From Clostridiaceae bacterium (lineage in GTDB: Bacteria; Bacillota; Clostridia; DSM-8532), in contig DUNT01000050.1 of NCBI GenBank assembly GCA_012839205.1, forward strand, positions 3,965-67,964: 64,000 nt of DNA. Direction: 5' to 3'. Positions 38,820-49,316 of the stretch are shown here, in pieces. A program made the position numbers and the translations under genes. Below the pieces are notes generated by a model, which made no database searches, was not told where the DNA came from, and worked only from the letters and a program-made list of their open reading frames with translations. Within the stretch, counting starts at the first letter, position 1, and each line of letters begins with the position of its first letter.

Positions 38820-38989
38820 ACTTTACAGCTACCATTAAAAAGTGAAATTTTGTAAGGATAATTAAGATTTCCCTCATCTTTTGATGGCGGGTAAGGATTA
38901 TTATTGCCAGCAGGATATATCTCCCATTCCGAGTTAACCACCTCACCCGACAGAAATCTTTAATCTTGGTAACTGTTGAGGTTGTCATA

Positions 38990-40414
38990 ATGATAAAAGG
39001 AGATACTATTGCTGAGAAATATAGGATTGTCGAATGTTTGGGCGAGGGAGGCACTTCAGCTGTATATCTTGCAGAAAATATAGCATTAAATAATCTCTGG
39101 GCAATTAAAGTTCTATCTAAAAGCAGCCGCTGGATTTCTTTTGATGTGGATGAAATAGGAATACTAAAAAATCTTAGCCATCCTATGTTACCAAGAATAG
39201 CTGATTTAACAGAGGATTCGGATAATTATTACATAGTTATGGACTACTTTTCGGGCTCAAATTTACTGAAAATAATAGAGTGCCAGGGAAGAATCTCTGA
39301 AAGAACGCTACTTAAATGGACAAAGGATATATTGAATGTACTAAGATATCTTCACAGCAGAACACCCCCTGTAATATACAGGGATTTAAAGCCTGCAAAT
39401 CTGATTGTGGATGACTCAGACCAATTAAGGCTTGTTGATTTTGGTACTGCCAGATACTACTCTGATGAAATATCAGAAGATACGGTCTACATCGGTACTC
39501 AAGGCTATGCGGCACCGGAACAGTATGGAATCGGGCAGACTGATCAGAGAACGGATCTTTACAGCCTGGGCATGACAATTATTCATCTTGCTACAGGAAT
39601 TCATCCTGTAAAGCTAGGTTCGGACAGTATAAGAGATTCACTTAGAAAAGCAGGTATCACACAAAATTTCATACGTTTTGTTTTAAAACTTACACAAACC
39701 GATCCATTAAAAAGGTTTCAGACCTGTGAAAAAGCCATTGAAGAACTGGACAGAATAATGAACCCCGAAAGACAATTTTTAAAGAATTACATTGCGAAAA
39801 AAGCCAAGAAAAACTTCAGGGGAGTAATAGCAATTGCTTCGGTGCTGCCGGCAAGCGGGGTAACAAGTCTGTGCCTTGCCATTGGGAAACACTTGTCAGA
39901 TAACAAAGTCAATTCTGTATTGGTTGAACTTAATTCCAGCGGGGATTTTAACAGAATGAGACAGTACCTGGATGAGCTGGGAGAAGTAAAATATCAAAGT
40001 GATAACCGGTTTGAAACTAATAATCTTATATTCTATCCCAATGCATCAGACTTCGGGGAGGTATCCAGAAAAGGCATCGATGCTGTAATCCTTGATGTTG
40101 GACAACTGAATGCTGAAAGAAAAATCAGCCAATTCAATCATGCTGATATCAGAATCGTTGTGTGTCCGTGTATGCCATGGAAATATGATCTTTTTTCAGA
40201 ATGTAACAAGAATATTGAGTCCTCGACAAAAAATGAATGGATATATGCGGCAAGTGTTACCCAAAGCTATGAAGGACAAAAATTAAAAAAACTTCTGGGC
40301 AGCAATAAACTGGTATTGTATTCCGCTGTTAAAAACCCTTTTTATCTGAGTATAGAAGAGCATAAGCGTATAGGGACTGCGCTTAATAAAATATGTGCAT
40401 TAGCAGGTAAATAG
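38990..40414 (+). CDS. Hanks-type Ser/Thr protein kinase fused to a C-terminal MinD/ParA(TadZ)-like domain lacking a P-loop
   Basis: Kinase motifs occur in order: LGEGGTSAVY, WAIKVL, YRDLKPANL, DFGTAR, GYAAPEQ. The C-terminal ~190 aa (FRGVIAIASVLPASGVTSLCLAIG...IDAVILDVG) has the beta-helix-beta layout of MinD/ParA, but ASGVTS replaces GKGGxGKT. The ATG at 38990 lies 9 nt after GAGG. Confidence 0.8.
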   Translation: MIKGDTIAEKYRIVECLGEGGTSAVYLAENIALNNLWAIKVLSKSSRWISFDVDEIGILKNLSHPMLPRIADLTEDSDNYYIVMDYFSGSNLLKIIECQGRISERTLLKWTKDILNVLRYLHSRTPPVIYRDLKPANLIVDDSDQLRLVDFGTARYYSDEISEDTVYIGTQGYAAPEQYGIGQTDQRTDLYSLGMTIIHLATGIHPVKLGSDSIRDSLRKAGITQNFIRFVLKLTQTDPLKRFQTCEKAIEELDRIMNPERQFLKNYIAKKAKKNFRGVIAIASVLPASGVTSLCLAIGKHLSDNKVNSVLVELNSSGDFNRMRQYLDELGEVKYQSDNRFETNNLIFYPNASDFGEVSRKGIDAVILDVGQLNAERKISQFNHADIRIVVCPCMPWKYDLFSECNKNIESSTKNEWIYAASVTQSYEGQKLKKLLGSNKLVLYSAVKNPFYLSIEEHKRIGTALNKICALAGK

Positions 40415-40435
40415 TAAGTGTGAGGAGGTAAAAAG

Positions 40436-41368
40436 GTGATTCTAAGGCCACAACGTTATAGGATCCTACTGGGTTTTCTGGCGGGTCTTTCGCTTTCTGT
40501 AATTATTATAGGGGCAAGCTATCTTTACTATAGGAATAATACATACCAGCTGGCTGAACAAGAGAAGCTTGAAATCAGACGAATGGCAGTGGAAGAATAC
40601 ATACAAAACAATCCTACAAGTCTGGTATATACAGTTACAACAGATAAAAAGTCAGGAGAGGTTTTACTGGATAAAGATATTGCTCCTGCCGAAATAAATG
40701 CAGGCCTTATACCGGCCGATGCTGTTACTGATCCTTCTTTAGCTGTTGGTAAGGTAATAAGATGCAGTATTATGTCTAATACGATAATAACCGAATCTCT
40801 TATGTATGAAAAGCAGGATTATCCACATGATATGAGACTTATGGAATACTCGGTTTTGAACCTTCCACAAAAGCTTCAAAAATTTGAATTCATCGATATC
40901 AGAATCATGTTTCCAAATGGCCTGGATTATATTGTTCTTTCCAAAAAGCAGGTTACTGATTTAGAAAGATTGGAAGAAAACCAAAAAAACACAATATGGT
41001 TCCATGCCGGTGAGGAGGAAATACTCAGGATGGCCAGTGCTATTGTTGACGCAAGTATCGTAGAGGGTACTGTCCTGTATGCGGTACCGTATATAGCGCC
41101 GGAAATTCAGGATGAGGCAGTCAGAACATACCCGGTAAACCCCGGGGTGCAAAAACTGATTTTGGAAGACCCCAACATTATCAACAAAGCCGTGACAGAG
41201 CTGGAATCCCGCAATCGTGAATTGTTTGAGAAAAGAATTAACGAAGACTACCAGTATGCCGGGAGGAATAAAGTATTTGCTGAGAACAATAATGCAATTT
41301 CACCTGATGATTTTGAGAGTAAAGATATTGATTTGGTAACAGAGGCGAGTGTAGAAGATAATCTTTAG
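40436..41368 (+). CDS. CpaB/RcpC-like SAF-domain pilus assembly protein
   Basis: 310 aa with a GTG start after GGAGG and one N-terminal TM helix. A SAF-like segment follows (VYTVTTDKKSGEVLLDKDIAPAEINAGLIPADAVTDPSLAVGKVIRCSIMSNTIITESL), as in Flp-pilus CpaB proteins. Confidence 0.6.
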   Translation: MILRPQRYRILLGFLAGLSLSVIIIGASYLYYRNNTYQLAEQEKLEIRRMAVEEYIQNNPTSLVYTVTTDKKSGEVLLDKDIAPAEINAGLIPADAVTDPSLAVGKVIRCSIMSNTIITESLMYEKQDYPHDMRLMEYSVLNLPQKLQKFEFIDIRIMFPNGLDYIVLSKKQVTDLERLEENQKNTIWFHAGEEEILRMASAIVDASIVEGTVLYAVPYIAPEIQDEAVRTYPVNPGVQKLILEDPNIINKAVTELESRNRELFEKRINEDYQYAGRNKVFAENNNAISPDDFESKDIDLVTEASVEDNL

Positions 41369-41378
41369 GAGGTATTAA

Positions 41379-42026
41379 ATGAATGTAGTATTTCTGGGAG
41401 AGAGTACAGAGGCAAAACGGTTTTTAATATTATGCCTTGCTAAAATCGCATCATGCTATGCAAATATTACTGTATTATCCAAGAAACCATACTCATATGG
41501 TGAAATCACCGATGAATATGAGTATTGCGGGATTGATTTTGTACTGCTTAAAGATGGGGAAAACCCTCTGTCAAAGATTTCAGAGTCTGCCGGTAATTTT
41601 GTGGACGCAGAAGAATATATAGATGTCCCGGAGGATTTTAAGGTAATAGCAGTAAGTGAAACAACCAGAGATAAACTTGAAAGTTGCATAGAATTAGCCG
41701 GGGAGTATACCCGGTGTCATCCATCCTTAAATCTCTATATTGTCTACCTGAATATAATGGAGTACTGTAGAATTGGAAAACGATTCTTAAGCAGTTTCTG
41801 GGAGCATAGCTTACCTAGTACTATTGAGATTGCTGGTACTGATGAAATATACTTTGAAGAAAAAAACCATATTGTTATGATAGAAAGTCAGTATTTGAAC
41901 AGATTATCCATCAGAAGTTTGTCATTACCCATCAAAACAGTATTCAGGAATATAATCCTGTATATTTTTTCTTTAGACACCAAAGAAGTAAAAGCAGTGT
42001 TTAAAAGAGCTGAAAGGATGAAATAG
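41379..42026 (+). CDS. Hypothetical protein, possible P-loop-less MinD/TadZ-like module
   Basis: 215 aa behind an AGGAGG RBS. It starts with beta-strand/helix/beta-strand (VVFLGESTEAKRFLILCLAKIASCYANITVLS) but has no Walker A. Confidence 0.4.
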   Translation: MNVVFLGESTEAKRFLILCLAKIASCYANITVLSKKPYSYGEITDEYEYCGIDFVLLKDGENPLSKISESAGNFVDAEEYIDVPEDFKVIAVSETTRDKLESCIELAGEYTRCHPSLNLYIVYLNIMEYCRIGKRFLSSFWEHSLPSTIEIAGTDEIYFEEKNHIVMIESQYLNRLSIRSLSLPIKTVFRNIILYIFSLDTKEVKAVFKRAERMK

Positions 42027-42027
42027 G

Positions 42028-42837
42028 ATGCAGGTTGCGTTCTGGTCAAATATGCACGGGCAAGGTGCCACAAGCGCTGCAACTGCAGCGGTTGCTTCTG
42101 TCATTGCGCAAAAAACAGCATTAAGAACCCTGATTGCTCATAACCAAATTGAAAAAAGTGCCATAGAAGGCTACTTGTTTAAAGAACCAAAGCAGCATAA
42201 CAGTATCAGAAACTTAAACAATCAGGGTATTGACGCACTTTTAAGACTGGTTAAAAACGGAAGACTCAAAACGGAGATGATTGCAGACTACACATATTCT
42301 ATCCTGAGAAATCATCGGATGGACTTGCTTTTGGGGACTGAGAAAAAACAAAAAATGACACAGGAAGATCAGGAGCTTTTTTTAAGTATACTCAGCTTTG
42401 CAAAAGAATTTTATGATCTCATAATACTGGACGTCCACAGCGGTCTAAAAGAGAATAATAGTTTGAGCCTCCTTAAAAGTTCGGACATAATAGTGTTTTG
42501 TATTAATCAGAACAGTTGTTTGCTGGATGATTTAGCCGGTATTTTTCATGAGCATGAGTTCCTGAAACAAAAGCAAGCAGCATTCGTTTTAGCGCGATAC
42601 GAAAAACATAGTGGCATAACAGGCGCAAGTATTGCGAGAAGGTATGGAATAAAGAAAAAATCTGTTTTTAAAATACCTAATTGTGCCCATTTAATGGATG
42701 CCTTGAACTCCGGAAGAGTATATGAATATGTTGCCTTTAATCACAATACAAAAAGAGGCGAAGAAAAAGAGGTGCTCGGCTCTTTAAACCGGCTCTGTGA
42801 GTATATTATTGAGGGGTGCGATAAAAATTGCCGCTGA
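42028..42837 (+). CDS. TadZ/CpaE-like MinD/ParA-fold protein with degenerate Walker A
   Basis: 269 aa. VAFWSNMHGQGATSAATAAVASVIA occupies the deviant-Walker-A position, and YDLIILDVHSG occupies the Walker-B position. It sits immediately upstream of the CpaF-like ATPase, as in Tad loci. Confidence 0.6.
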   Translation: MQVAFWSNMHGQGATSAATAAVASVIAQKTALRTLIAHNQIEKSAIEGYLFKEPKQHNSIRNLNNQGIDALLRLVKNGRLKTEMIADYTYSILRNHRMDLLLGTEKKQKMTQEDQELFLSILSFAKEFYDLIILDVHSGLKENNSLSLLKSSDIIVFCINQNSCLLDDLAGIFHEHEFLKQKQAAFVLARYEKHSGITGASIARRYGIKKKSVFKIPNCAHLMDALNSGRVYEYVAFNHNTKRGEEKEVLGSLNRLCEYIIEGCDKNCR

Positions 42838-44702
42838 TGATGAACCTGATAATAATTATATTAATATTGTTTGGTCTGGGTATATCCCTGTACTTTTTCT
42901 TTGTTTCAAGAAAGTATTACAGAGAGACAGTGGAAAGAGAAGATCCCCAGAAGTACACAATTCCTGGTCTTATAGAATATGTTAAGGATTGTATTAATGA
43001 GATAACAAGAACAAATCTATTCGAGCTTGGTCTCAGTGAAGTGGAGTTTAAAAAGCAAACCAACCAAAGAGCCGAACTGAAGAAAGCTCTCAAAGTATGC
43101 ATGCATGGCTCCATAGTGGATAAGCAGTTTGTCAAGGCTTTTATCTATGATATTCTGCATGCTTATATTCCAAATGAGAAAACCAATTCAATTATCCCTT
43201 TTAATAACCCATACCTTCTTTCAACAAAGGATAAGTTTGCAATTCTGATTTACATGACAAAAAAGGAACATGGAGCCAATGCCCTTTCGTATCTGATTGA
43301 TACCTTTCAACTGGACAGGCTTAAGAAAAACGAAAATGGAGAGTATTCCTATTATATATCCAAACAAGAAATCAATGATATCTATAACAGAATGGACTTA
43401 ATTCTTACAGGGGAAGACAAACTTGAGATCATCACCCAAACTGTATATGAACAGTACAAAGGGTTAGGTGTCATAGATGAAATCAGGGATATGAATATTG
43501 ACGGGGTTTCTGCCGGGGTTTCAGGGGTACCCGAAGACTTCATCGAATTCTCAGATTTTAGGGAGCATATCAATGGAGTTAACCGCCACGAAAAAAACTA
43601 TGAAAGTATTTGGCTTTTTTATAAAGGAAAATCCATAAAACTTGATTTTATAGGTTTCGAAAGCGAAAGTGAGCTAAAAAGAGTTTGTCAGATAATATAC
43701 CGCTACAATCGGGGAGGTCAGCTTTCGGAGGCTACCGGCTACAGAGTCAACGAGATGAAGGACGGAAGCCGTATTTTGGTTGTTAGGCCACCGTTTTCTG
43801 AATCATGGGCATTCTTTGTCCGCAAATTTTATATTAAAAACGTAACGCTGGAAACGCTTATACAAGATGAAAACGCTTATTTGCCTATTAATCTGATCAA
43901 ATACATCGTAAAGGGCGGTATGATTACTGCTGTAACAGGGCAGCAAGGAAGCGGGAAAACCACAATGCTTATGGCTATGATTGAACATATTTATGCCACA
44001 TTAACTCTTCGTATTCAGGAAATGGCCTTTGAACTTAATCTCAGAAAACTATATCCCAGAAGAAATATTCTGTCCTTCAGAGAAACCGAAACAATTTCAG
44101 GACAAATGGGTCTTGATATTCAGAAAAAGACAGATGGCAGCGTAAACATACTTGGTGAAGTGGCCACCGACCCGGTGGCGGCATGGATGATACAAATGTC
44201 TCAGGTGGCTTCGTTATTTACCCTCTTTACCCATCATGCCAAAACCACGCGGGATCTGGTTTATTCGCTTAGAAACTCATTATTAAAATGCGAGATGTTT
44301 AATAATGAGAAAATAGCTGAACAGCAGGTAGTATCGGTTTTAGATTTTGACATACATCTTGCAAGAGACTATGAAGGTAATAGATATATTGAACGCATCA
44401 CTGAGATAGTAGAGCTTCCGGACATACCTCTGCCTGGTGATTTTGTCTATAAAATTAATCTCAGCGAAAAAACAGCTTCTTTCATGGAAACCACTGCTGA
44501 GTATTATAACAAGATGACTGACAAGAAAATCTTTGAGTGTCGTAATATTATTGAGTTCAGAAATGGACAATATGTTGCGGTTAATCCTGTTACAGAAGAA
44601 AGAGCAGAGCAAATGAAACGGGCAATGACAAGGAAAGATGCTCAGCAATTCGATGATTATATGTATAAGTATTTTAGCCTGCAAAGTGAGGTGAGAGTAT
44701 GA
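42828..44702 (+). CDS. CpaF/TadA-like (T2SS-E/VirB11 superfamily) secretion ATPase with N-terminal TM anchor
   Basis: 624 aa. The N-terminus LIIIILILFGLGISLYFFFV is hydrophobic. YKGLGVIDEIRDMNIDGVSAG aligns with the CpaF GLGPLEPLL...DImVNG block. Walker A is GQQGSGKTT, the Walker-B region is ILGEV, and the His-box-like segment is FTLFTHHAKT. Confidence 0.8.
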   Translation: MPLMMNLIIIILILFGLGISLYFFFVSRKYYRETVEREDPQKYTIPGLIEYVKDCINEITRTNLFELGLSEVEFKKQTNQRAELKKALKVCMHGSIVDKQFVKAFIYDILHAYIPNEKTNSIIPFNNPYLLSTKDKFAILIYMTKKEHGANALSYLIDTFQLDRLKKNENGEYSYYISKQEINDIYNRMDLILTGEDKLEIITQTVYEQYKGLGVIDEIRDMNIDGVSAGVSGVPEDFIEFSDFREHINGVNRHEKNYESIWLFYKGKSIKLDFIGFESESELKRVCQIIYRYNRGGQLSEATGYRVNEMKDGSRILVVRPPFSESWAFFVRKFYIKNVTLETLIQDENAYLPINLIKYIVKGGMITAVTGQQGSGKTTMLMAMIEHIYATLTLRIQEMAFELNLRKLYPRRNILSFRETETISGQMGLDIQKKTDGSVNILGEVATDPVAAWMIQMSQVASLFTLFTHHAKTTRDLVYSLRNSLLKCEMFNNEKIAEQQVVSVLDFDIHLARDYEGNRYIERITEIVELPDIPLPGDFVYKINLSEKTASFMETTAEYYNKMTDKKIFECRNIIEFRNGQYVAVNPVTEERAEQMKRAMTRKDAQQFDDYMYKYFSLQSEVRV

Positions 44703-46732
44703 ATACATATGTCATAATCGGAGTGTCTTGCCTCTGTCTTGCGTTTATATTGATAATAGTAAACCTGGTTTATACAAAGAAAAGAAATAATTTGGGGGAA
44801 AACTTAAGACAGGCAGGAAAAAGGTATTTAACATTCTATATTTCACTGTATCGCAGATTCAGCAGGATTCCCATATTGAAAAAGCTCTTGCTGAATATCA
44901 GAAAAAGACTTGAAATATATACTGTTTCTGATGAAAGCAATATCAGAAAGACAACGGTTATTCTTCTTCTGCTTTCGGCTGCAGCGTATATATCCATTGT
45001 AATTGTTTTCTGGATTCTTACCCGGGACTTGCTGATTTTAATTCTGTTTGCAATACTTTTGTCTTTTATCGGAGACACAATAATAGAACTGTTTATAAGT
45101 AATCTCCAGGACAAGCTGCTCCGGCAGCAGATTAAATATCTGGAGCTTTTGAGACATAAATACTATGAGCAAAAATCTGTCGAAGATGCCAATCTGGAGG
45201 CATGTAACCTGCTGAACAGGGAAGGAACTTTTGAAGTTTATACTCAGGCAGAGCGGATAAATGACATTCTTTTTTCCAAAGATGTGGAAGAGGAGCTGGA
45301 GAAATATTACGAAACAGCCCCCAATAAATATTTTAAGATGCTGGCAGGTATAATCTTCATTACCAAGGAATATGGAGACACCTTTGTAAAGGATAGTTCT
45401 GTTTTTATCAGGTGCATAACATATCTTGGCAGCGAAATCAAAGCTGAATTGTATAAACGGGAAAAACTGAAATACGCTTTAAAGAGCCTGACCACCATAT
45501 CTCTTCTTCCCCTGTTCTTCTTAAAACCCTTAAGAAATTGGGCATCAGGAAGTTTCGCACCCCTGGAATCCTTTTATTCCAGCAGAATGGGCATTATCCT
45601 GGGCATGGCAACAATATTGACCTCAATCGTTTGCTATATGGTTTTAAGAAGGCTGCAGCGTTTTGATAATCATATAAGTACCGGATTTGTAAAAAAATCG
45701 TTTGAAGAACGGTTATATAAAAAATTTCTGCATTCTGCAGTGGACAGGCTGGTACCAAGACAGTATTCAAAGCAGTCACAATATTTGACAGAACTTATTA
45801 AAAACGCTATGGCACCTGTTAATATATATACACTGTATGTACGAAGACTTTTTATTGGTTTCATAGGGTTTGTTTTTGGTATTTTCATGTTTTTGGGGTT
45901 AAATGCATACACCAGATATTCGATTCTTTATTTGCCTCAAATGCCGGAAGGTTATCTGGGAGGGCAACTTTCAGCCCAAGAATACGAAAGGCTTAAAAGC
46001 ATCACAGATTTTGACAGGAAAATCATTCTGAGCTTAGGCAAAAACCTGAATGAGGATTTGGTACTGGAGAAATTGGATGAAAACCAACAATTGAATAGAC
46101 AGGAAGTAACAGCTGCTCATGAAAGAATCAATAAAAAAATTCATATGCTTTCCAATAATATATTCTGGTGGTGGCAGCTTATTATATGCTTCTTGTTTTT
46201 TATTGCAGGATATTGGGTTCCAATCATCAGTCTTGTTATTATGGCAAAGGCAAGAAGAATAGATATGGAAGATGAAGTATCTCAGTTTCAGACAATTATC
46301 CTTATGTTAATGCATATGAACAGGATTCACGTTCAGGAAATTCTGGAGTGGATGGAAGCCTTTTCAGTCCATTTTAAAGAACCCTTACAAAAATGTATCT
46401 TGAATTTCAGCTCGGGGCCGTATGAGGCACTGGAAGAGCTTAAAGCGGAAGTTGGGTTTTCTCCTTTTCTGGCTATAATAGACAATCTTCAGCTGGCCGC
46501 TGCAGACCTGGAGGTGGCAAAGGCCTTTGAAGAGCTGGAAAACGAGATGAGTTTTAATCGTGAAAGTCGTAAAGACACAAATGAAAGAATAGTGGAGAGA
46601 AAGAAAAACCTGGGTAATATTATAGGCTTTTTGCCAGCATATATGCTGATTATCCTATACCTTATAATCCCAATGATAGTATCGGGGATGAATAGTATTT
46701 CAGCATTTTATAAACAAATAATGCAAATATAA
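44699..46732 (+). CDS. Polytopic membrane protein, fused TadB/TadC-like (GspF/T2SS-F type) platform
   Basis: 677 aa with several TM clusters separated by two long helical cytoplasmic regions. The C-terminal third (FQTIILMLMH...EALEELKAEVGFSPFLAIIDNLQLA...NLGNIIGFLPAYMLIILYLIIPMI) follows the T2SS-F repeat pattern. ATGA overlap with the ATPase gene. Confidence 0.6.
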   Translation: MNTYVIIGVSCLCLAFILIIVNLVYTKKRNNLGENLRQAGKRYLTFYISLYRRFSRIPILKKLLLNIRKRLEIYTVSDESNIRKTTVILLLLSAAAYISIVIVFWILTRDLLILILFAILLSFIGDTIIELFISNLQDKLLRQQIKYLELLRHKYYEQKSVEDANLEACNLLNREGTFEVYTQAERINDILFSKDVEEELEKYYETAPNKYFKMLAGIIFITKEYGDTFVKDSSVFIRCITYLGSEIKAELYKREKLKYALKSLTTISLLPLFFLKPLRNWASGSFAPLESFYSSRMGIILGMATILTSIVCYMVLRRLQRFDNHISTGFVKKSFEERLYKKFLHSAVDRLVPRQYSKQSQYLTELIKNAMAPVNIYTLYVRRLFIGFIGFVFGIFMFLGLNAYTRYSILYLPQMPEGYLGGQLSAQEYERLKSITDFDRKIILSLGKNLNEDLVLEKLDENQQLNRQEVTAAHERINKKIHMLSNNIFWWWQLIICFLFFIAGYWVPIISLVIMAKARRIDMEDEVSQFQTIILMLMHMNRIHVQEILEWMEAFSVHFKEPLQKCILNFSSGPYEALEELKAEVGFSPFLAIIDNLQLAAADLEVAKAFEELENEMSFNRESRKDTNERIVERKKNLGNIIGFLPAYMLIILYLIIPMIVSGMNSISAFYKQIMQI

Positions 46733-46756
46733 ACCATGAATGCAGGAGGTAAAGCT

Positions 46757-47335
46757 ATGGAAGGCAATTTGTCTAAAGCACTTTGGCTGGGAGTCTCAAT
46801 TCTCCTTTTTATTGCAGTTGTAACTGTAGGGCTGAGTATTTTCGGAGGAATGAAAGAAGTGAGCAATCTGGCCAATGATCGTATTGGGTCCATATCCCAA
46901 AGCATGGCAGAGGAAGAATTCAGAATATATGACGGAAAGGAAGTAAGAGGGGATGATGTCCTTTCAGCACTGGGAACTTTTGGCGGCAGAAGCGGTGAAG
47001 TAATCGTCTTTGTGGCAACCTTGGGCTCCAATGGCGGAAATCCCGTAAATTTAAATCTTTCTACAGGCACCGGGTTAAACAGTTCCAGCTATAACCAATA
47101 CATTTCAAAAACAACAGGTACACTGAGGACAGACAATAAATGTGTAATACTGTCAGTAAACAGCGGCGAACTTCTGTCAAGCGTCAGTAAGACTGTTATG
47201 GATGCGGAAAGAAGGGACTGTGAGAATCCCAATCTTACATCCAAATATATCAATCCCTCCGGAAAATTTATGTCCCATTTAGTTTACGATACAAACTTAA
47301 AAATTCGTGGTGTAATCTTTGCACAAAAGGACTAA
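46757..47335 (+). CDS. Putative pilin-like protein (short polar N-terminus plus one hydrophobic helix)
   Basis: The ATG at 46757 lies 7 nt after AGGAGG. The N-terminus is MEGNLSKALWLGVSILLFIAVVTVGLSIFGG, followed by a ~160-aa Ser/Gly/Asn-rich soluble part. Confidence 0.5.
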   Translation: MEGNLSKALWLGVSILLFIAVVTVGLSIFGGMKEVSNLANDRIGSISQSMAEEEFRIYDGKEVRGDDVLSALGTFGGRSGEVIVFVATLGSNGGNPVNLNLSTGTGLNSSSYNQYISKTTGTLRTDNKCVILSVNSGELLSSVSKTVMDAERRDCENPNLTSKYINPSGKFMSHLVYDTNLKIRGVIFAQKD

Positions 47336-47337
47336 TT

Positions 47338-47760
47338 ATGAGTGGTAATATTGAAAAAATATTATATCTGGGTTTAGCAGTTGTTTTACTTGGGATGGCT
47401 TTTACATTTTTCTTTTCCGGCTATAACAACTACCGGGATTATATTACAAAAAGCAATATAATTATTAATGATGACAGGATGGTAGCTATTACAGAGGGGA
47501 AGGATAAGTCTGTAATAAACGGGACAGAGGTTATACATCAGGTGCTTGAATTCCAAAAACTTGAGCAAAATAATCAACTGCTTGATTTTTATTCGGATTT
47601 AACTGAATCTCCGTATCAAAGCCAAGCTGAAATATGGGTTTCCGGAATATATGCAATTGATATTAAAACATCAGATGTAGACGCTGCTTCCCTCTATGGT
47701 ATTGTATTTGAAAAAGACAATTCGGGACAAATAATAAAAGTCCAGTATAGCTTAAAGTAG
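47338..47760 (+). CDS. Putative pilin-like protein, N-terminal paralogue of the preceding gene
   Basis: 140 aa. The N-terminus MSGNIEKILYLGLAVVLLGMAFTFFF shares the pattern M-x-G-N-[LI]-x-K-x-L-[WY]-L-G with the previous ORF. Confidence 0.5.
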   Translation: MSGNIEKILYLGLAVVLLGMAFTFFFSGYNNYRDYITKSNIIINDDRMVAITEGKDKSVINGTEVIHQVLEFQKLEQNNQLLDFYSDLTESPYQSQAEIWVSGIYAIDIKTSDVDAASLYGIVFEKDNSGQIIKVQYSLK

Positions 47761-47773
47761 AAAAGGAGAGGAC

Positions 47774-48328
47774 ATGGACAGAGCTTTTTGGAAGGTACTG
47801 GCGTTTTTATTATGTGCTGTTTTAATGTTTTTGCTTCCTTTAATGACCATTTTGGACAGGCAGGATGATATTGCCTACAATATAGTTCTGACAGAGTGTA
47901 ACAGATTTGTCGATGCCTGCAGGGATACAGGGTATATAACACCGGGCATGTATTCTGAGTTTACGAATCGCATCAGATCAACGGGGAACACTTACAGTAT
48001 AAAACTGTCACATATAAAAAGGTCGGTAAGTCCGGTCTATAAACAGATTAACGGAGTTTTGGACTTCACGGGTGAATATGAAATAACCCATATAAACTAT
48101 GGCGAACATGACATATTGGGAGTCTTGTATCCAAATAATCCGGTGCAGTCAGAACATGATAAATCAAGACGCTATGATATGAGTATGGGCGACCTTCTTT
48201 TTGTCGAAGTTCAGAACAATGGCAAGACAATGGCAACAGCAATTCGTGACATGATGATGTTCAGGAATACTGATTATCCTGCTATATTTGTTCGTTCTGG
48301 AGGGATGATAAGAAATGAGGCTTACTAG
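47774..48328 (+). CDS. Hypothetical protein with N-terminal TM/signal-anchor helix (minor-pilin/TadE-like candidate)
   Basis: 184 aa behind an AGGAGAGG RBS. N-terminus MDRAFWKVLAFLLCAVLMFLLPLMTIL. Confidence 0.4.
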   Translation: MDRAFWKVLAFLLCAVLMFLLPLMTILDRQDDIAYNIVLTECNRFVDACRDTGYITPGMYSEFTNRIRSTGNTYSIKLSHIKRSVSPVYKQINGVLDFTGEYEITHINYGEHDILGVLYPNNPVQSEHDKSRRYDMSMGDLLFVEVQNNGKTMATAIRDMMMFRNTDYPAIFVRSGGMIRNEAY

Positions 48329-49316
48329 TTTAGCAATTACCTTCCTGATTATCGTTTCTCCCTTTATTTATATAAGTGCACAGGAAACTGAAGTTGCCAT
48401 ACAAGACCAAAGACTGAGGTATTATTACGACAATATAATAGATAACGCTGTTGCAGATGCTGCATTTATTCTTTCAAACAAGGGTACAGATTTTACATAT
48501 ACAGGTAATGTAAACATATCAGATGCCAGAAAACTTGCCGCTGAGGCCTTCTTTGATTCTGTATACTATTCATTCAATGCTAAGGGCAATCAATCTTTAA
48601 TGGCTCGGGTGGATGCCTGCATACCGGTTCTTGTTTTTTTGGAAAGTGAAGGCTTTTCTCTATACGTTCTTGATGAATATAAAAACATAAATGGACAAAA
48701 TGAGATCAAACATCTGTGGTTTCCTGTGCAACACTATATCGGAGAAGTTATATCCGACAGATTTGTTATTCGCTATACTCTTGAAAACAAAGTTTATGTA
48801 TTTGATATAATAGAACAGACTTTGATGGAAGGCGATTACAGCGAATTTAGAGATATAATTCCTTTCTTTAAAGAGAAGCAGGATTTTGAAAATCTACGAA
48901 TAACAGCTATAAAGAACTCTGTTGTAGAAAAGATTATGGCATATATGAATTATTATAATCAGTGGGCATTGGGGAAAAGTCTCTCTGTTAAGTTGGAATT
49001 CCCATCCATAGAAGATGCAGACTGGAAAAGAGCTCTTACAGATGAGGGTATAATGGTCTTTACTCAGGGATTTCCTGTCCTTTCAGGCAAAAACTATAAG
49101 CACTATGCTCTGGGGGCAGCAAGGGTTATAAGAAAAGCGCCCTTAACAGGTTATACTTACCAGGGGGTATTATATTATTGCCGAACAGATTGTGCCCACT
49201 TACAAAATACTGTTATTTCGGATATAGGCTTCAACCAGGATAGCATGACTTACTTTTCTAATGCATATGAGGCGGCTGCCAGCGGGTATTTTCCCTGTCC
49301 CTTCTGCCGCCCGTAA
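48315..49316 (+). CDS. Hypothetical protein with N-terminal TM helix and C-terminal Cys4 (Ada-like zinc-binding) motif
   Basis: 333 aa. N-terminus LTSLAITFLIIVSPFIYI. The C-terminus is YYCRTDCAHL...x29...GYFPCPFCRP. A 14-nt overlap with the preceding gene. Confidence 0.45.
   Translation: MRLTSLAITFLIIVSPFIYISAQETEVAIQDQRLRYYYDNIIDNAVADAAFILSNKGTDFTYTGNVNISDARKLAAEAFFDSVYYSFNAKGNQSLMARVDACIPVLVFLESEGFSLYVLDEYKNINGQNEIKHLWFPVQHYIGEVISDRFVIRYTLENKVYVFDIIEQTLMEGDYSEFRDIIPFFKEKQDFENLRITAIKNSVVEKIMAYMNYYNQWALGKSLSVKLEFPSIEDADWKRALTDEGIMVFTQGFPVLSGKNYKHYALGAARVIRKAPLTGYTYQGVLYYCRTDCAHLQNTVISDIGFNQDSMTYFSNAYEAAASGYFPCPFCRP

Follow-up and report, generated by a model that had tools for sequence, protein, structure and literature searches.

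Are two adjacent genes whose products open with nearly the same short tail and hydrophobic stretch the subunits of a type IV filament, and, if so, is a leader cut from them? This question is raised by two open reading frames (ORFs), here called A and B, in DNA of a Clostridiaceae bacterium (assembly GCA_012839205.1, contig DUNT01000050.1, positions 3,965 to 67,964 of the forward strand; this whole stretch of 64,000 nucleotides is referred to below as the window). An earlier reading of the letters (the original prediction) took A and B to be pilin-like proteins that might carry a new prepilin-type signal, possibly cleaved after Gly3. Genomic context and architecture bear out the pilin-like character, whereas a class III signal cut after Gly3 is not supported. 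We consider it probable that A and B are the major subunit and a minor subunit of a filament or pseudopilus built by an uncharacterised, divergent Tad-like machine of Firmicutes; the most fitting description of the locus is a type IV filament machine, Tad-like but divergent, whose subunit candidates are non-canonical and unannotated. The two genes and the shared signature are the following.

46757 to 47335, plus strand: protein A, 192 amino acids, candidate major filament subunit; first gene after the platform gene, with a strong ribosome-binding site
47338 to 47760, plus strand: protein B, 140 amino acids, divergent and fast-evolving paralogue of A (hhalign against A), candidate minor subunit
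46757 to 46846, plus strand: N-terminal signature in A, residues 1-30, MEGNLSK followed by ALWLGVSILLFIAVVTVGLSIFG; the best-conserved part of the protein

Both ORFs were recovered on the plus strand at these positions with the N-termini originally read for them (MEGNLSKALWLGVSILLFIAVV in A and MSGNIEKILYLGLAVVLLGMAF in B), which have in common the motif M-x-G-N-[LI]-x-K-x-L-[WY]-L-G followed by a hydrophobic helix. The near-identity of the two patterns is real, and the signature recurs in the orthologues of both ORFs. A begins with an ATG at 46757, 8 nucleotides after AGGAGG. Among 50 distinct upstream contexts of A orthologues, a Shine-Dalgarno-like site is found in 42 and an in-frame upstream start codon of any kind in only 12; M1 is accordingly the genuine N-terminus of A, which leaves only 7 residues before the hydrophobic tract. 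An upstream start with a longer leader was rejected on the same 50 contexts.

The A orthologues form 82 clusters at 56-99% identity, and a word-based search recovers only 13 clusters of B homologues, at 61-100% identity. Over 79 A orthologues M1, N4, K7, A8, L9, W10 and G12 are invariant, and the wider list of invariant sites in residues 1-30 also includes V13, F18, A20, V22, G25 and F29, so that two small residues in the helix of A, G12 and G25, never change. The 14 B orthologues never vary at M1, N4, L9 and Y10, and all have K or R at position 7. The majority residue of A has a frequency of 0.89 in the N-terminal 30 residues versus 0.69 in the remainder, and in every family conservation peaks in these 30 residues, in contrast to a variable head. 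When a strict form of the motif (M..N[LIVM].[KR].L[WYF][LIMS][GD]) was run against 1746 ORFs of at least 80 amino acids from 58 related loci, about 1 Mb in all, 74 ORFs matched, and all 74 occupy the gene position of A or of B; within the window the strict motif matches A and B only. Over the first 12 codons the DNA of A and B is identical at only 20 of 36 positions, so that the likeness of the two N-termini is kept by selection on the protein and not by recent gene conversion, which we rejected on this count. Compared with the A proteins of other clades, which have 157-162 amino acids, A proteins of the clade in the window are longer by an insertion of some 35 residues (NGGNPVNLNLSTGTGLNSSSYNQ..., window 47030-47140, residues about 92-128 of A), a variable and probably surface-exposed loop.

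The remainder of the two proteins had been described as unrelated. In a profile-profile alignment (hhalign), however, A and B align over their full length (Prob 97.4, E = 1.5e-11), and the A superfamily matches B with E = 2.8e-9. When the first 35 residues are removed the same register is recovered, although weakly (E = 1.1e-3). A gives no match to protein C, the neighbouring protein that is also anchored by a transmembrane (TM) helix (E = 0.27), and the match between A and B is therefore not a generic effect of TM helices. These comparisons indicate that A and B are distant paralogues, B being a divergent member of the A family. It is barely credible that the likeness is trivial, that is, that A and B merely carry generic signal-anchor or Sec sequences, or a Sec signal that signal peptidase I would remove, setting soluble proteins free. 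Both N-termini are indeed mostly hydrophobic, with specific residues at just N4, K7, L9, W/Y10 and G12, but these positions are invariant independently in each family, the motif is confined to two gene positions among the 1746 ORFs, and the profiles of A and B agree where those of A and C do not. Moreover, the predicted helix continues to residue 56, and the tract of 21-22 residues is too long for a Sec h-region and is followed by no conserved AxA site; cleavage by signal peptidase I was rejected.

A hidden Markov model search of the full database with the A alignment found at least 930 representative clusters (defined at 50% identity) at E ≤ 1e-3, 96 of them at E ≤ 1e-10. Most members are 135-250 amino acids long and a few reach 385. 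Their N-termini follow the same plan (MDQNIQKALWLGV..., MENATKAIIIAAS..., MSNAQKALVMAAG... and MEKEISSGAMLGIV...), and the heads share the motifs YD[GN], G65, YINP and DxN. Further carriers of the motif, which the original prediction had proposed to look for, thus exist in the form of orthologues and hundreds of related clusters; a profile search with the N-terminal 42 amino acids alone returned only seven truncated A/B fragments and no new carrier families. The B proteins of more distant operons have lost N4 and the aromatic residue, and some of them the basic residue at position 7 as well, as in MDQSLVKALEMAV and MEKLLNLLEVAI. All 90 A-family members checked lack a Pfam family. All long contigs examined have the A-family member downstream of this kind of machine, and in two loci the member is part of an array of about 4-6 A-like paralogues, which C-like and D-like genes follow. 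The number of clusters, the paralogue arrays, the long members (up to 385 amino acids), which resemble modular pilins, and the contrast between a conserved N-terminus and a variable head are features typical of pilin families.

What machine do A and B accompany? They are genes 7 and 8 of a tightly packed operon of 10 genes (38966-49316, all on the plus strand) flanked by hisI/hisE-like genes and a thioredoxin-reductase-like gene. The other eight genes are listed here.

38966 to 40414, plus strand: first operon gene, Ser/Thr kinase with a C-terminal ParA/TadZ-like domain (Pfam Pkinase, E = 1e-45; gene callers put its start at 38990)
40436 to 41368, plus strand: CpaB/RcpC-like protein with an N-terminal TM helix and a SAF domain (Pfam SAF, E = 9.8e-7, above the cutoff)
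41379 to 42026, plus strand: protein of 215 amino acids, possibly degenerate ParA-like (weak TadZ-profile match, E = 1.1e-3)
42028 to 42837, plus strand: TadZ/CpaE-like protein of the ParA family, 269 amino acids (hhalign against TadZ/CpaE, Prob 97.3, E = 2.7e-11)
42837 to 44702, plus strand: divergent traffic ATPase of the CpaF/TadA type, 621 amino acids, with an N-terminal TM helix (CpaF in PDB, E = 6e-12)
44699 to 46732, plus strand: platform protein, 677 amino acids, 7-8 TM helices and two T2SSF (TadB/TadC-like) domains (hhalign against TadB/TadC)
47774 to 48328, plus strand: protein C, 184 amino acids, N-terminal TM helix with an invariant Pro, then an ERQDD motif; conserved operon member
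48315 to 49316, plus strand: protein D, 333 amino acids, last operon gene, N-terminal TM helix and a C-terminal EAAxxGYxP(C)PxC motif; conserved across loci

Profile comparison of the predicted proteins shows that the operon encodes the core machinery of a type IV filament, namely a traffic ATPase and a T2SSF platform, and that TadZ/CpaE ParA-like and CpaB/RcpC SAF proteins are encoded beside the ATPase, as in Tad systems. The ATPase matches CpaF (8rkd and 9e24) over residues 263-541, its sole convincing solved relative; it bears a Walker A motif (GQQGSGKTT), a GE motif and a His box (HHA), and it matches TIGR03819 with E = 1.4e-8 and falls below the Pfam T2SSE cutoff. Its N-terminal TM helix (MMNLIIIILILFGLGISLYFFFV, window 42837-42930), which is conserved in most orthologues, is unusual for traffic ATPases of type IV filaments. 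The platform protein was not detected by Pfam or by sequence and profile searches of PDB. Against a TadB/TadC (T2SSF) profile built from annotated plasmid Tad loci, its N-terminal half (residues 56-322) scores Prob 96.6 and E = 7e-10 and its C-terminal half Prob 94.3 and E = 1e-7; the two halves match each other weakly (E = 0.11). A single platform gene with both domains is present in all loci.

The SAF protein also matches TIGR03177 (pilus_cpaB) weakly. The protein of 215 amino acids has no Pfam match and is conserved in the operon across loci, and the orthologue of the 269-residue protein on plasmid pTHECO01 of Thermobacillus composti is annotated 'chromosome partitioning protein ParA'. The kinase gene heads the operon in almost all loci; its C-terminal part is a separate ORF in distant loci, where that ORF matches the TadZ profile with Prob 94.9 and E = 4.5e-8. 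In one locus (L055, 1415-2239) a gene resembling PP2C-type phosphatases, as judged from its sequence only, lies just upstream of the machine, and together with the kinase it suggests that the machine may be under phospho-regulation. Protein C has no Pfam match and is unrelated to A (E = 0.27) and to the TadE/F/G profile (E = 0.23), and Pfam and NCBIfam give nothing significant for A, B, C, D or the platform. The C-terminus of D (window 49170-49316) reads CxxxC...EAAxxGYxPCPxC[RK]P and has a weak Ada_Zn_binding match (E = 0.0014); the Acetivibrionales-like clade and a few further loci retain all four Cys, elsewhere just the EAAxxGY core persists, and the motif would be part of a domain presumed to be extracytoplasmic. 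A, B, C and D each consist of a short tail and a single N-terminal TM helix before the remaining sequence. There is no small Flp-like ORF in the operon, and a Pfam scan of it found no actin-like PilM. A scan of the locus for promoters and terminators was uninformative. A prophage origin of the locus was rejected, the operon being syntenic beside the hisI/hisE and trxB-like genes across the family.

The resemblance to the Tad/Flp (type IVc) system is extensive, as both have a CpaF-type ATPase, a T2SSF platform, a TadZ-like ParA protein and a CpaB-like SAF protein. It extends to the gene order of the secretin-less Tad loci of single-membrane bacteria, in which small N-terminally hydrophobic proteins follow the platform gene. 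The Tad order in the actinobacterium Pimelobacter (SAF-ParA-CpaF-TadB-TadC-Flp-TadE-TadE/G-TadG) is matched by that of the window operon, which puts A to D in the place of Flp, TadE, TadF and TadG, and the SAF gene occupies the same position in classical single-membrane Tad loci (L069). Several differences set the present system apart. The two T2SSF domains are on one chain of 677 amino acids, whereas separate tadB and tadC genes are a feature of Tad (PMC6668835); the ATPase has about 620 amino acids and an N-terminal TM helix; the subunits are 140-190 amino acids long or longer and lack the EY motif, whereas Flp proteins have 50-70 amino acids and the motif G↓xxxxEY (the arrow marks the cleavage site here and below); there is no tadV in the locus; and a Ser/Thr kinase heads the operon.

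Denise et al. (2019) argue that an archaeal platform gene with two domains split into tadB and tadC (PMC6668835). The single-chain platform is either the older, unsplit state or a secondary fusion. Archaeal type IV pili (Aap, Ups, Epd-like) usually have one long platform with two T2SSF domains, and TadZ has archaeal relatives (PMC6668835). Archaeal pilins may further have a residue other than Gly at -1 and lack Glu5, as a cut between K7-A8 and L9 of A would need (PMC4471445). On the other side, the hosts of the present system are bacteria, the closest solved ATPase is bacterial CpaF, a PDB search with the ATPase matched neither archaeal FlaI nor GspE2 at E < 1, no peptidase of the PibD, FlaK or EppA type is seen here, and the tail before the TM helix is acidic or neutral with a single Lys.

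Is the gene product of A built like a pilin? In the AlphaFold2 model of A (pLDDT 82.8) residues 2-56 form one unbroken helix ahead of an alpha/beta head, and the modelled outline resembles the lollipop of pilins; the model of B is of low confidence (pLDDT 55.6) with a helix over residues 2-46. The same build would also suit a part of the machine itself. A and B may be bitopic components, such as an alignment or stator pair like PilN/PilO, a ring or a wall conduit, docked by tail and TM helix to the platform, the ATPase or the ParA-like proteins. PilN and PilO (of the GspL/GspM type) are likewise bitopic paralogues encoded side by side, each with a short and conserved N-terminus in the cytoplasm, a TM helix, a long helix and a small alpha/beta domain, and the N-terminal TM helix of the ATPase suggests contacts within the membrane; the lack of a pilin fold match, of a peptidase gene, of Gly-1 and of Glu5 would also be expected of such components. 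However, neither Pfam nor sequence and fold comparison with PDB relates A or B to PilN or PilO, and the same is true of GspL and GspM. Such proteins are missing from known Tad systems, in which the gene position of A and B belongs to Flp or pseudopilins. Pilin repertoires, unlike stoichiometric scaffolds, typically include paralogue arrays (here about 4-6 in a row) and long modular members, and the head is hypervariable whereas the helix is nearly invariant. We therefore regard a scaffold role as unlikely, although it is the strongest of the competing explanations.

If A and B are filament subunits, are they processed? A class III signal is a hydrophilic leader of 6-26 amino acids that ends in a critical Gly and is followed by 21 mostly hydrophobic residues, Glu5 included, and it is cut by a dedicated peptidase; the last residue of the leader is 'absolutely critical' for processing and must be Gly for bacterial enzymes of the PilD type, whereas archaeal class III signals tolerate other residues at -1 and often miss Glu5 (PMC4471445). 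The original prediction noted that the signature differs from those of type IV pilins, Flp and TadE, and it does, with neither Glu5 nor an EY motif; it left open whether the two are prepilins whose new class III-type signal is cut after Gly3 by an A24 or GxGD-type peptidase. Both window proteins do have Gly3, as do 69 of 79 A orthologues, and a hydrophobic tract follows. Gly3 is nevertheless not a conserved feature. In the other 10 A orthologues position 3 is S, in the A proteins of distant operons it is Q, N or S (e.g., MDQNIQK and MDNNISK), and in B it is G, S, A, D, K, T, Q or N. A cut there would leave a leader of 3 amino acids, outside the range of 6-26 and ending in a residue that should be critical (PMC4471445), and would place a Lys at mature +4 (N4-L5-S6-K7); no peptidase gene was found nearby. 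Because position 3 is variable and the leader would have only three residues, cleavage after Gly3 is very unlikely, and we give next to no credence to the reading of A and B as prepilins matured in this way.

If A is processed at all, K7-A8↓L9 is a more plausible site than Gly3. A, although not necessarily B, might then carry an archaeal-style class III signal with the leader MEGNLSKA, cut between A8 and L9 by a housekeeping prepilin peptidase encoded elsewhere. This would put a basic residue at -2 and a small one at -1; A8 is present in 79 of 79 A orthologues and in all A copies of the 51 genome loci with a complete operon; and the hydrophobic tract from L9 to F29 has exactly 21 mostly hydrophobic residues, the canonical length (PMC4471445). 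The tolerance of archaeal pilins at -1 and their frequent lack of Glu5 (PMC4471445) fit as well, as do the unsplit two-domain platform, which is the archaeal arrangement, and the MSH loci, which also lack a peptidase of their own (PMC6668835). On the other hand, the residue after K is A or G in just 44 of 67 representatives of the superfamily (the others have V, M, S, L, I, Y, W or P, with a bulky residue in one third of the representatives) and the equivalent residue in B is I, A, M, V or L, bacterial enzymes of the PilD type need Gly (PMC4471445), and no peptidase has been identified. A signal of this kind is accordingly improbable, if less so than one ending in Gly3. Since the A8 position varies in the superfamily and in B, an unprocessed, natively short N-terminus is at least as likely as a K-A↓L cut, and the alternative considered from the outset, an uncleaved assembly tag, is possible.

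Taken as filament subunits, A and B would work as follows. The N-terminus would comprise a 7-residue cytoplasmic tail, M-[DE/S]-x-N-[IL]-x-[KR], and a hydrophobic helix of 21-22 residues, which would first anchor the subunit in the membrane with the N-terminus inside and the C-terminus outside. After extraction by the platform and the ATPase, the helix would form the packed core of the polymer, and such a core would explain why it is the most conserved part and why its small residues G12 and G25 are invariant. The N-x-x-K tail would be the determinant recognised by the machine. The subunits would be used unprocessed, as 'leaderless' pilins, or, in the case of A only, trimmed at K7-A8↓L9; a cut at Gly3 is not expected.

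Several observations weigh against such a role. Foldseek found no solved pilin or pseudopilin for the A model (best E = 0.76 in PDB and 0.07 in a viral library), a profile search of PDB sequences with the A family returned no pilin, and the pilin families of Pfam and NCBIfam match neither A nor B. A, B and C compared with the TadE/F/G profile gave only E = 0.07-0.27 (hhalign; D was not compared), and no Pfam TadE match was obtained. The pilins of a classical Tad locus all have one leader in common (KKGG↓LS in C. botulinum, RDERG↓SV in Pimelobacter), whereas C and D do not carry the motif of A and B. No orthologue of A or B has an acidic residue in the hydrophobic tract, and thus there is no Glu5, nor is there a conserved Gly at -1. 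The cognate A24 prepilin peptidase that the original prediction had suggested looking for is likewise absent from the operons of about 60 loci (whole genomes were not searched), from the window ORFs checked as candidates, and from the annotation of the 149-kb pTHECO01, whose gene table is incomplete. Furthermore, the charges on either side of the TM helix give no clear indication of the topology, and the filament itself is predicted from gene content. The missing peptidase gene is not decisive, because MSH loci also lack one of their own (PMC6668835).

Nor is Glu5 universal even among the Gly-terminated Tad pilins of Firmicutes. Plasmid pOsaka2020-1 of C. botulinum carries a classical Tad-like locus (L065, 10174-12363) in which five small proteins have the sequence KKGG↓LS(Q/V)LLSVVLLL in common and no Glu5. 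The competence pseudopilus of Firmicutes, ComG, likewise of single-membrane bacteria, follows the same operon logic as proposed here, with an ATPase, a platform, and one major and several minor N-terminally hydrophobic subunits; it differs in its canonical class III signal (Gly-1, Phe+1 and Glu5), its dedicated peptidase ComC, and a motor of the PilB/PilC lineage instead of CpaF/Tad. We tentatively propose, as a bolder claim that is considerably less secure than the subunit role itself, that the A/B family may be a new and widespread class of type IV filament subunits outside the canonical prepilin pathway, with a 7-residue tail M-[DE]-x-N-x-x-K, no Gly leader and no Glu5. A deep-branching relative of Tad with an archaeal-style unsplit platform would assemble these subunits, either unprocessed or once cut at K-A↓L; it occurs on chromosomes of Clostridia and on plasmids of Bacillales.

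How widely is the system distributed? The complete operon occurs in 51 loci from GTDB species genomes. Its hosts include Thermoclostridium caenicola DSM 19027, Anaerotalea alkaliphila, Petrocella sp. FN5 and Clostridiales bacterium COT073, and metagenome-assembled genomes of Vallitaleaceae, Lachnospiraceae, Peptostreptococcales and Acetivibrionales; Tumebacillus flagellatus has the operon without the kinase and with two copies of A. Near-full-length orthologues of the ATPase, at 39-55% identity, are also present on 33 plasmid records, mainly from Bacillales and Clostridium (Thermobacillus, Cohnella, Paenibacillus, Alkalihalophilus pseudofirmus OF4, Cytobacillus, Sporosarcina, Lysinibacillus and Clostridium botulinum), where their NCBI annotation reads 'Flp pilus assembly complex ATPase component TadA' or 'ATPase, T2SS/T4P/T4SS family'. 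Of the plasmids, only pTHECO01 was inspected in full, and it carries the complete operon; its copy of A begins MSTNASKALYFGASLLL, and its A-D and platform genes are annotated 'hypothetical protein'. We found no description of this operon or protein family in the literature, and a paper on type IV pili of Paenibacillus deals with the canonical PilB/PilC/PilD system and not with this operon.

On pTHECO01 (L063, L070 and L071) the operon adjoins conjugation genes of the Tcp/VirD4 type and replication-relaxation genes, and it is followed by genes for SLH-domain, DUF5704, GGDEF and HD proteins and for an FN3 protein of 2391 amino acids. The Tumebacillus locus contains SLH and DUF5704 genes, with WXG100/EssC genes nearby. 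It is possible that the machine is tied to adhesion or mating-pair contact, as these neighbours on pTHECO01 and in Tumebacillus would allow, and the SLH, FN3 and cyclic di-GMP (c-di-GMP) genes beside the plasmid versions suggest that it serves in adhesion to surfaces or in contact between cells. The distant versions of the machine that have about 4-6 A-like paralogues (L061 and L062) are preceded by genes for peptidoglycan hydrolases (M23 and NlpC/P60; L061 1-1201 and L062 1001-2029) and have HNH and thymidylate kinase genes among their neighbours; these copies may lie on mobile elements.

In genome surveys type IV filaments are found through the signatures of pilins and their peptidase. The subunit candidates described here escape all pilin models tried (Pfam, NCBIfam, and PDB sequence and fold) and lack both Gly-1 and Glu5, which are regarded as critical for processing and for assembly, respectively, and their family spans Clostridia and Bacilli, on chromosomes as well as on large plasmids with conjugation, S-layer-homology, FN3 and c-di-GMP genes. 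The single-chain platform bears on the proposed archaeal origin of Tad. If the wider claim for the family is true, this would be the first bacterial lineage of type IV filaments whose subunits are independent of a Gly-specific prepilin peptidase. If A and B polymerise, the accepted rules for recognising pilins would have to be widened, the type IV filaments of Firmicutes would be under-counted in current surveys, and the family would offer a tractable system in which to ask whether leader cleavage and Glu5 are needed for extraction and polymerisation.

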